From assembly GCF_000026545.1 (NCBI RefSeq), contig NC_011601.1: a stretch of 64,000 nt of DNA; one strand, 5' to 3'. Positions 25,408 through 25,722 of this stretch are shown here, piece after piece (position 1 is the first letter of the stretch; each line of letters starts with the position of its first letter). The notes below the pieces were generated by a model. The model was not told the DNA's origin, did no database searches, and saw only the letters and a list, made by a program, of their open reading frames with translations. Origin of the DNA: Escherichia coli O127:H6 str. E2348/69. GTDB taxonomy: Bacteria; Pseudomonadota; Gammaproteobacteria; Enterobacterales; Enterobacteriaceae. Made by a program: the position numbers and the translations under genes.

Positions 25408-25722
25408 TTGTATCTCCTTGCCGTTGCCACAACCAGTGTGGCGGTTCGCAGTTTGTCCCGGTTCCCAGCGTTAGTGCGTCTGGCGTCAGCTGTAAGATCG
25501 TCCAGCCGTTTTCCAGCACATCGTTTTGCTGCACCCGTCGCCATTTTTTTGCCCATCTTTTATTACACCGATGATGCGCTCGCCTCGCCCTACCATCCCC
25601 TGATAGCGCCACTGGCTAAGTTCGCTAATCCGGCATAGATCTTCCGGCGGTTTAAAAGGGTCACGCATACCGGTTAAAAGGCACAATGCAATACCTGCCA
25701 ACAACCAGCGTTTAACCCTCAT
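25319..25722 (-). pseudogene. hofP: hofP split by a frameshift in a homopolymer run (N-terminal part in one frame, C-terminal part in another)
   Basis: The N-terminal portion (MRVKRWLLAGIALCLLTG...KDGQK) is in frame with ORF 25486..25761 and the C-terminal portion (...WRRVQQNDVLENGW...) is in ORF 25319..25612. The frames switch at the A7 run (T7 on the plus strand, 25554-25560). The span from start to stop is 404 nt, i.e. 405-1, matching a 134-aa protein if one A were restored. Confidence 0.6.

Follow-up and report, generated by a model that had tools for sequence, protein, structure and literature searches.

In the hofMNOPQ operon of the EPEC strain Escherichia coli O127:H6 E2348/69, hofP has hofO and hofQ as its neighbors. 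The operon is encoded on the minus strand of a stretch of 64,000 nucleotides (contig NC_011601.1) that was analyzed as a whole and is referred to below as the window. The operon is flanked by mrcA and aroK-aroB, and in locus and synteny (mrcA / hofM-N-O-P-Q / aroK-aroB) it is the same as the known hofMNOPQ operon that encodes HofP (YrfA; PF10748, DUF2531). The following features of the operon are used throughout this analysis:

24169-25407, minus strand: hofQ, secretin gene, intact, 412 aa (WP_000816005.1, as in strain SK1144 with its intact hofP)
25414-25419, minus strand: strong Shine-Dalgarno sequence AAGGAG of hofQ, separated by 6 nt from the start codon ATG (25407)
25319-25722, minus strand: hofP pseudogene, 404 nt when counted from its ATG through the stop codon of the C-terminal frame; RefSeq CDS annotated as 'frameshifted'
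25319-25543, minus strand: C-terminal part of the hofP coding sequence, left out of frame (codons for residues 61-134 of the intact protein)
25486-25722, minus strand: hofP frame translated from its own start, 59 native and 19 out-of-frame residues, then TGA; 78 aa
25489-25615, minus strand: region of 127 nt in which the N- and C-terminal frames of hofP are both open
25544-25550, minus strand: A7 run (T7 on the plus strand), where one base is missing in comparison with the intact A8 allele
25712-26152, minus strand: hofO, intact, overlapping the hofP start by 11 nt
26136-26675, minus strand: hofN, intact
26675-27454, minus strand: hofM, intact, first gene of hofMNOPQ

Translation of hofP from its ATG (25722-25720, minus strand) yields the native sequence MRVKRW...DGQK through Gly57-Gln58-Lys59, followed by 19 foreign residues, NGDGCSKTMCWKTAGRSYS, and the stop codon TGA at 25488-25486. 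The C-terminal sequence of HofP, WRRVQQNDVLENGW...KSDADGG, continues in another frame that ends with TGA at 25321-25319, and this out-of-frame part codes for predicted beta-strands 3-6 of a PilP-like domain and for a disordered tail. An earlier, sequence-only reading of the region had proposed that the two halves of hofP lie in different frames switching at an A7 run, which is borne out by the sequence, the frames and their translations. The homopolymer had been placed at 25554-25560, 10 positions away from its actual location at 25544-25550, and the broader interval given for the lesion, 25540-25575, does contain the run.

Comparison with hofP of other E. coli, recommended in the same reading, showed what the intact gene looks like. 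In strain SK1144, hofP is annotated as intact with 405 nt and 134 aa, in agreement with the earlier count that left the 404 nt of E2348/69 one nucleotide short, and the whole gene is identical to that in the window except for an A8 run in place of A7. As the two alleles differ only in the length of this run, the lesion is a single-base contraction of A8, which converts CAA AAA AAA TGG (Gln58-Lys59-Lys60-Trp61) into CAA AAA AAT GG and breaks the frame after codon 59 in DNA that otherwise matches the intact E. coli alleles base for base. The one-base deletion is thus specific when set against intact relatives and is no chance pattern.

The possibility that HofP is genuinely a protein of about 80 aa is excluded, because its orthologs from other Escherichia, E. 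fergusonii, Citrobacter, Salmonella enterica and S. bongori have 130-137 aa, align end to end and are conserved to their ends, with 17 of the 32 invariant columns located past residue 60 (e.g., W61, R63, V64, W74, C92, P94, W99 and R101-Q102-G103). The Pfam HofP model PF10748 spans residues 3-134 of the repaired protein (E = 2.7e-79, 263.8 bits), whereas the actual 78-aa product matches it at positions 1-58 of 132 alone (110.4 bits), both scores being above the gathering cut-off of 24. An uninterrupted reading frame of 130-137 aa covering the full PF10748 model is thus absent from E2348/69, where the frame is broken after codon 59. Among NCBIfam models, none for HofP scored on the protein.

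A sequence search of the PDB with HofP gave no meaningful match to any solved structure, and for this reason intact HofP was modeled from the ortholog alignment and compared with solved structures by fold. The AlphaFold model has a mean pLDDT of 66 (moderate confidence), with block means of 73-88 over residues 31-100; its strands comprise residues 39-46, 49-55, 61-64, 75-79, 83-87 and 96-100, and the tail at 107-134 is disordered. The fold matches to the model, with their scores, were as follows:

3oss_C, ETEC GspC-HR, solved in complex with GspD: 7.5
2y4x_A, Pseudomonas aeruginosa PilP: 6.8
4av2_M, Neisseria meningitidis PilP: 6.2
2ivw_A, N. meningitidis PilP: 5.8
3jc8, PilP in a model of the type IVa pilus machine: 5.7
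6hcg_e, OutC of the Klebsiella pneumoniae type II secretion complex: 5.7

Intact HofP is thereby predicted to be a small beta-sandwich like the solved structures of PilP, the lipoprotein of the type IVa pilus alignment subcomplex, and of the GspC HR domain of type II secretion, where this domain binds the secretin, although sequence identity of HofP to these proteins is only 9-21%. The PilP/GspC domain contacts the N0 domain of the secretin. By these fold matches HofP is the PilP-like component of a PilMNOPQ-type machine, with putative binding to HofQ. This role fits the position of the gene and agrees with a published account in which hofM-P encode proteins of type IV pilus assembly and hofQ the secretin (bioRxiv 10.1101/856302). 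The frameshift falls directly after strand 2, so that strands 3-6 are removed and only two of the six strands of the domain are kept.

In the proposed course of events, replication slippage would have removed one A from the A8 run, leaving A7, and translation from the normal start would then produce 78 aa composed of the 59 native residues and a nonsense tail of 19. Such a product would keep only the N-terminal signal/anchor segment and the first two beta-strands, and it is probably unable to fold into the PilP-like domain. Since nothing of the domain beyond strands 1-2 is retained, HofP is likely to be non-functional and its function lost in E2348/69. The HofMNO alignment subcomplex may then be uncoupled from the HofQ secretin, and the Sxy-induced type IV pilus and the DNA-uptake/DNA-as-nutrient machinery would be impaired in this strain. 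In the papers examined we found no experiment tying HofP itself to a phenotype; the functional data concern hofQ, which is needed for Sxy-induced DNA uptake in strain K-12 (PMC3330819) and contributes to kidney persistence of the UPEC strain UTI89 (PMC2649431). The role in the use of DNA as a nutrient is credited to Palchevskiy & Finkel 2006 (via PMC9273947).

The overlap of hofQ with the 3' end of hofP, also pointed out in the sequence-only reading, is confirmed: in the intact allele, the first 89 nt of hofQ lie within hofP in a different frame. The premature stop of hofP in E2348/69 is located 78 nt upstream of the hofQ ATG, and the Shine-Dalgarno sequence lies 66 nt downstream of this stop. 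Occlusion of the hofQ ribosome-binding site was not observed in the local RNA fold, in which the Shine-Dalgarno sequence and the AUG are unpaired and whose stability does not exceed that of shuffled sequence (z = +0.40). Most likely, ribosomes still initiate independently on hofQ at its own Shine-Dalgarno sequence, and any loss of translational coupling or polarity on hofQ would be small. In the overlap itself (25319-25407, minus strand), the HofP tail 107-134 is predicted to be disordered, and a motif RQGxxNEAMDS is invariant across genera; because this motif coincides with the Shine-Dalgarno sequence and start codon of hofQ, its conservation may reflect the initiation signals of hofQ and not HofP.

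The distribution of run lengths was determined by a census of 5,426 complete E. coli genomes, in which exact 47-49-mers over the run site were searched with blastn and the identity band of at least 99% served as a counter of exact matches. The counts were:

interrupted run CAAAAGAAATGG, A4-G-A3 (CAA AAG AAA TGG, synonymous; K-12 type): 4,023 records
uninterrupted A8 (48-mer): 1,145 records
A7: 5 records

No exact match to A9 was found in these 5,426 genomes. From these counts it follows that the fragile run is limited to about a fifth (~21%) of the complete genomes and that its collapse is rare, with hofP being nearly universal and intact in E. coli and the E2348/69 allele representing a rare strain-level loss. 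The five A7 records consist of three E2348/69 assemblies, ST95-32 (chicken, China) and CUVET18-565 (dog, Thailand), and thus represent three lineages. The latter two strains, each with 23 intact neighboring genes over 24 kb, carry synonymous SNPs that differ from E2348/69 and from one another, so that their A7 alleles look like independent events, although residual homopolymer error is possible in both. In the wider protein collection, the A7-type product of 78 aa was found on 609 contigs and an A9-type product of 106 aa on 61 contigs. The run-length counts are consistent with a slippage hotspot. Like homopolymer-slippage pseudogenes of other enterobacterial genomes, for example those in A/T runs of at least eight described in Salmonella (PMC8538453), hofP of E2348/69 has a single-base A8 contraction within the coding sequence that is lineage-specific and appears to have recurred independently. 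What is particular to hofP among such enterobacterial slippage pseudogenes is the synonymous AAG that interrupts the run in most E. coli and thereby removes the fragile tract.

The A8 run could have been a derived state specific to phylogroup B2; this was rejected, since Nissle 1917, a phylogroup B2 strain, has the interrupted run and two divergent Escherichia hofP sequences (88-90% protein identity) have A8. Those two sequences tentatively suggest that A8 may be the older state and the AAG interruption derived and stabilizing. Compared with positions 25541-25553 of the window, Nissle 1917 has the K-12-type interrupted run and flanking SNPs, whereas ST131 and ST95 strains have the A8 type, to which E2348/69 also belongs apart from its one-base loss. 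The hofP haplotypes hence do not follow phylogroups cleanly, a pattern that may reflect recombination in this region. On the K-12-type background, an 11-bp deletion in hofP (GTGCAGCAAAA), just downstream of the Lys-Lys codons, was found in NZ_CP045975.1 (AUSMDU00002545) and NZ_CP018245.1; it was considered as a common second lineage of hofP pseudogenes and rejected, with only these 2 records among the 5,426 complete genomes.

Several readings of the A7 allele other than a simple loss of function have to be weighed. One would combine a hotspot with leakiness: the A8 run would be a site of low-frequency slippage that repeatedly disables HofP as the link between the pilus alignment complex and the HofQ secretin, and the A7 allele of E2348/69 would possibly still yield a few percent of wild-type HofP through the heptamer A_AAA_AAU. 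If true, the hofP of this strain would be a leaky, not a null, allele of the DNA-uptake/pilus machine; we regard this combined reading as unlikely.

A sequencing or assembly artefact would mean that the true run is A8 and that a miscall was propagated, for example by reference-guided polishing. Runs of A7/A8 are classic error sites of long reads, and the hofP run is itself a known trap of this kind, because nine of the ten public examples of the 78-aa product on long contigs come from noisy assemblies of long reads, which have 4-18 indels in a stretch of 6.2 kb and in which hofQ, aroK, aroB and mrcA are broken into fragments. These nine assemblies are labeled as near-complete genomes, and their indels span the mrcA-hof-aroKB region and fragment essential genes. 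Their A7 calls are almost certainly sequencing errors that inflate the apparent frequency of the allele. This pattern does not apply to E2348/69. The window is, base for base, the reverse complement of NZ_CP059840.2:373054-437053, and a 25-kb segment of it is 100% identical to NZ_CP059840.2, NZ_LT827011.1 and NZ_LT903847.1, three RefSeq assemblies of E2348/69 or its derivatives that all have A7 and in which PGAP annotates hofP as 'frameshifted'. GenBank assembly GCA_053076565.1, with a contig common to four samples, also has A7 and matches the window at 100% identity across the 6.2 kb around the gene. Every E2348/69 assembly that was examined carries A7, with no mixture of A7 and A8; as all of them represent one strain, this agreement confirms the sequence of the strain and not the time of the mutation (in nature or in the laboratory). 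The surroundings are cleanly assembled as well, with hofM, hofN, hofO, hofQ and their neighbors intact and two pseudogenes in 64 kb including hofP. Homopolymers of length 7 occur 13 times in the window, and among the genes annotated near them only hofP and one toxin remnant are damaged; no other housekeeping gene is frameshifted. Of the other competence and pilus genes, the window includes just gntX, which is intact. An artefact is accordingly improbable, and between the pseudogene and the sequencing error that the earlier reading had left as alternatives, the agreement of at least four E2348/69-derived assemblies and the clean surroundings favor the former. 

We conclude that hofP of EPEC E2348/69 very probably carries a real, strain-specific loss-of-function frameshift. 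It is an ordinary homopolymer-frameshift pseudogene, formed by a textbook route and already known from the public RefSeq annotation; none of the papers searched names hofP or yrfA alongside E2348/69 or discusses the frameshift.

A recoded or leaky gene would still provide some full-length HofP by a -1 slip on A_AAA_AAU, by a slip elsewhere in the 127 nt where both frames are open, or by an added A. A -1 ribosomal slip or the insertion of one A into the transcript within 25489-25615 would indeed lead to full-length, near-native HofP, the A7 run in the zero frame forms a heptamer of the X_XXY_YYZ type on which a -1 shift restores the wild-type QKKW, and non-programmed -1 slips have suppressed one-base deletions in E. 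coli test genes at 1-10% in aggregate (PMC10861913). The RNA just downstream of the run folds somewhat better than shuffled versions (z = -2.0, 8 of 200 shuffles being as good), but intact alleles share this sequence, so the fold does not look like a dedicated stimulator. Transcriptional slippage in bacteria has been described for runs of 9 A/T (PMC5009743), for which seven is short. The frameshift itself is not conserved: hofP is encoded in a single frame in 1,145 (A8) and 4,023 (A4GA3) records and in other genera, which gives no sign of selection for recoding. Efficient E. coli slippery sites moreover have AAG as their A-site codon, which A_AAA_AAU does not. Recoding is on this evidence quite unlikely.

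Least probable, with only a very slight chance, is a phase-variable contingency switch in which A8 toggles hofP ON and OFF and E2348/69 was sampled in the OFF state, for although contracted (A7) and expanded (A9-type, 106-aa) alleles both occur in public data and A7 is present on three SNP backgrounds, OFF alleles are very rare in complete genomes (5 A7 and no A9 against 1,145 A8), many public A7 calls are sequencing noise, the E2348/69 assemblies are all A7 without a mixture of ON and OFF, the run of most E. coli is interrupted and stable with unchanged amino acids, and eight bases are short for a contingency tract.

The loss-of-function frameshift bears on the use of E2348/69, the prototype EPEC strain that is widely used in laboratories. 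Anyone who examines growth on DNA, DNA uptake induced by Sxy or the chromosomal PpdD/HCP-type pilus (type IV) in this strain works with a broken hofP, and negative results obtained there may stem from this lesion and not from general E. coli biology. For surveys of public genomes, A7 calls at the hofP run are often long-read noise.

Two further observations concern the window as a whole. Its A and T homopolymers reach a length of 7 at thirteen sites and exceed it nowhere; runs of at least 8 thus seem to be avoided, and an ancestral A8 in hofP would be an outlier. Besides hofP, the 64 kb contain a single pseudogene, the remnant of a RelE/ParE-family toxin gene at 39253-39569 (plus strand), annotated by PGAP as 'frameshifted; internal stop', which is located between envZ and pckA beside an intact NadS-family gene, nadS (39628-39924), and together with it looks like a decayed toxin-antitoxin pair.
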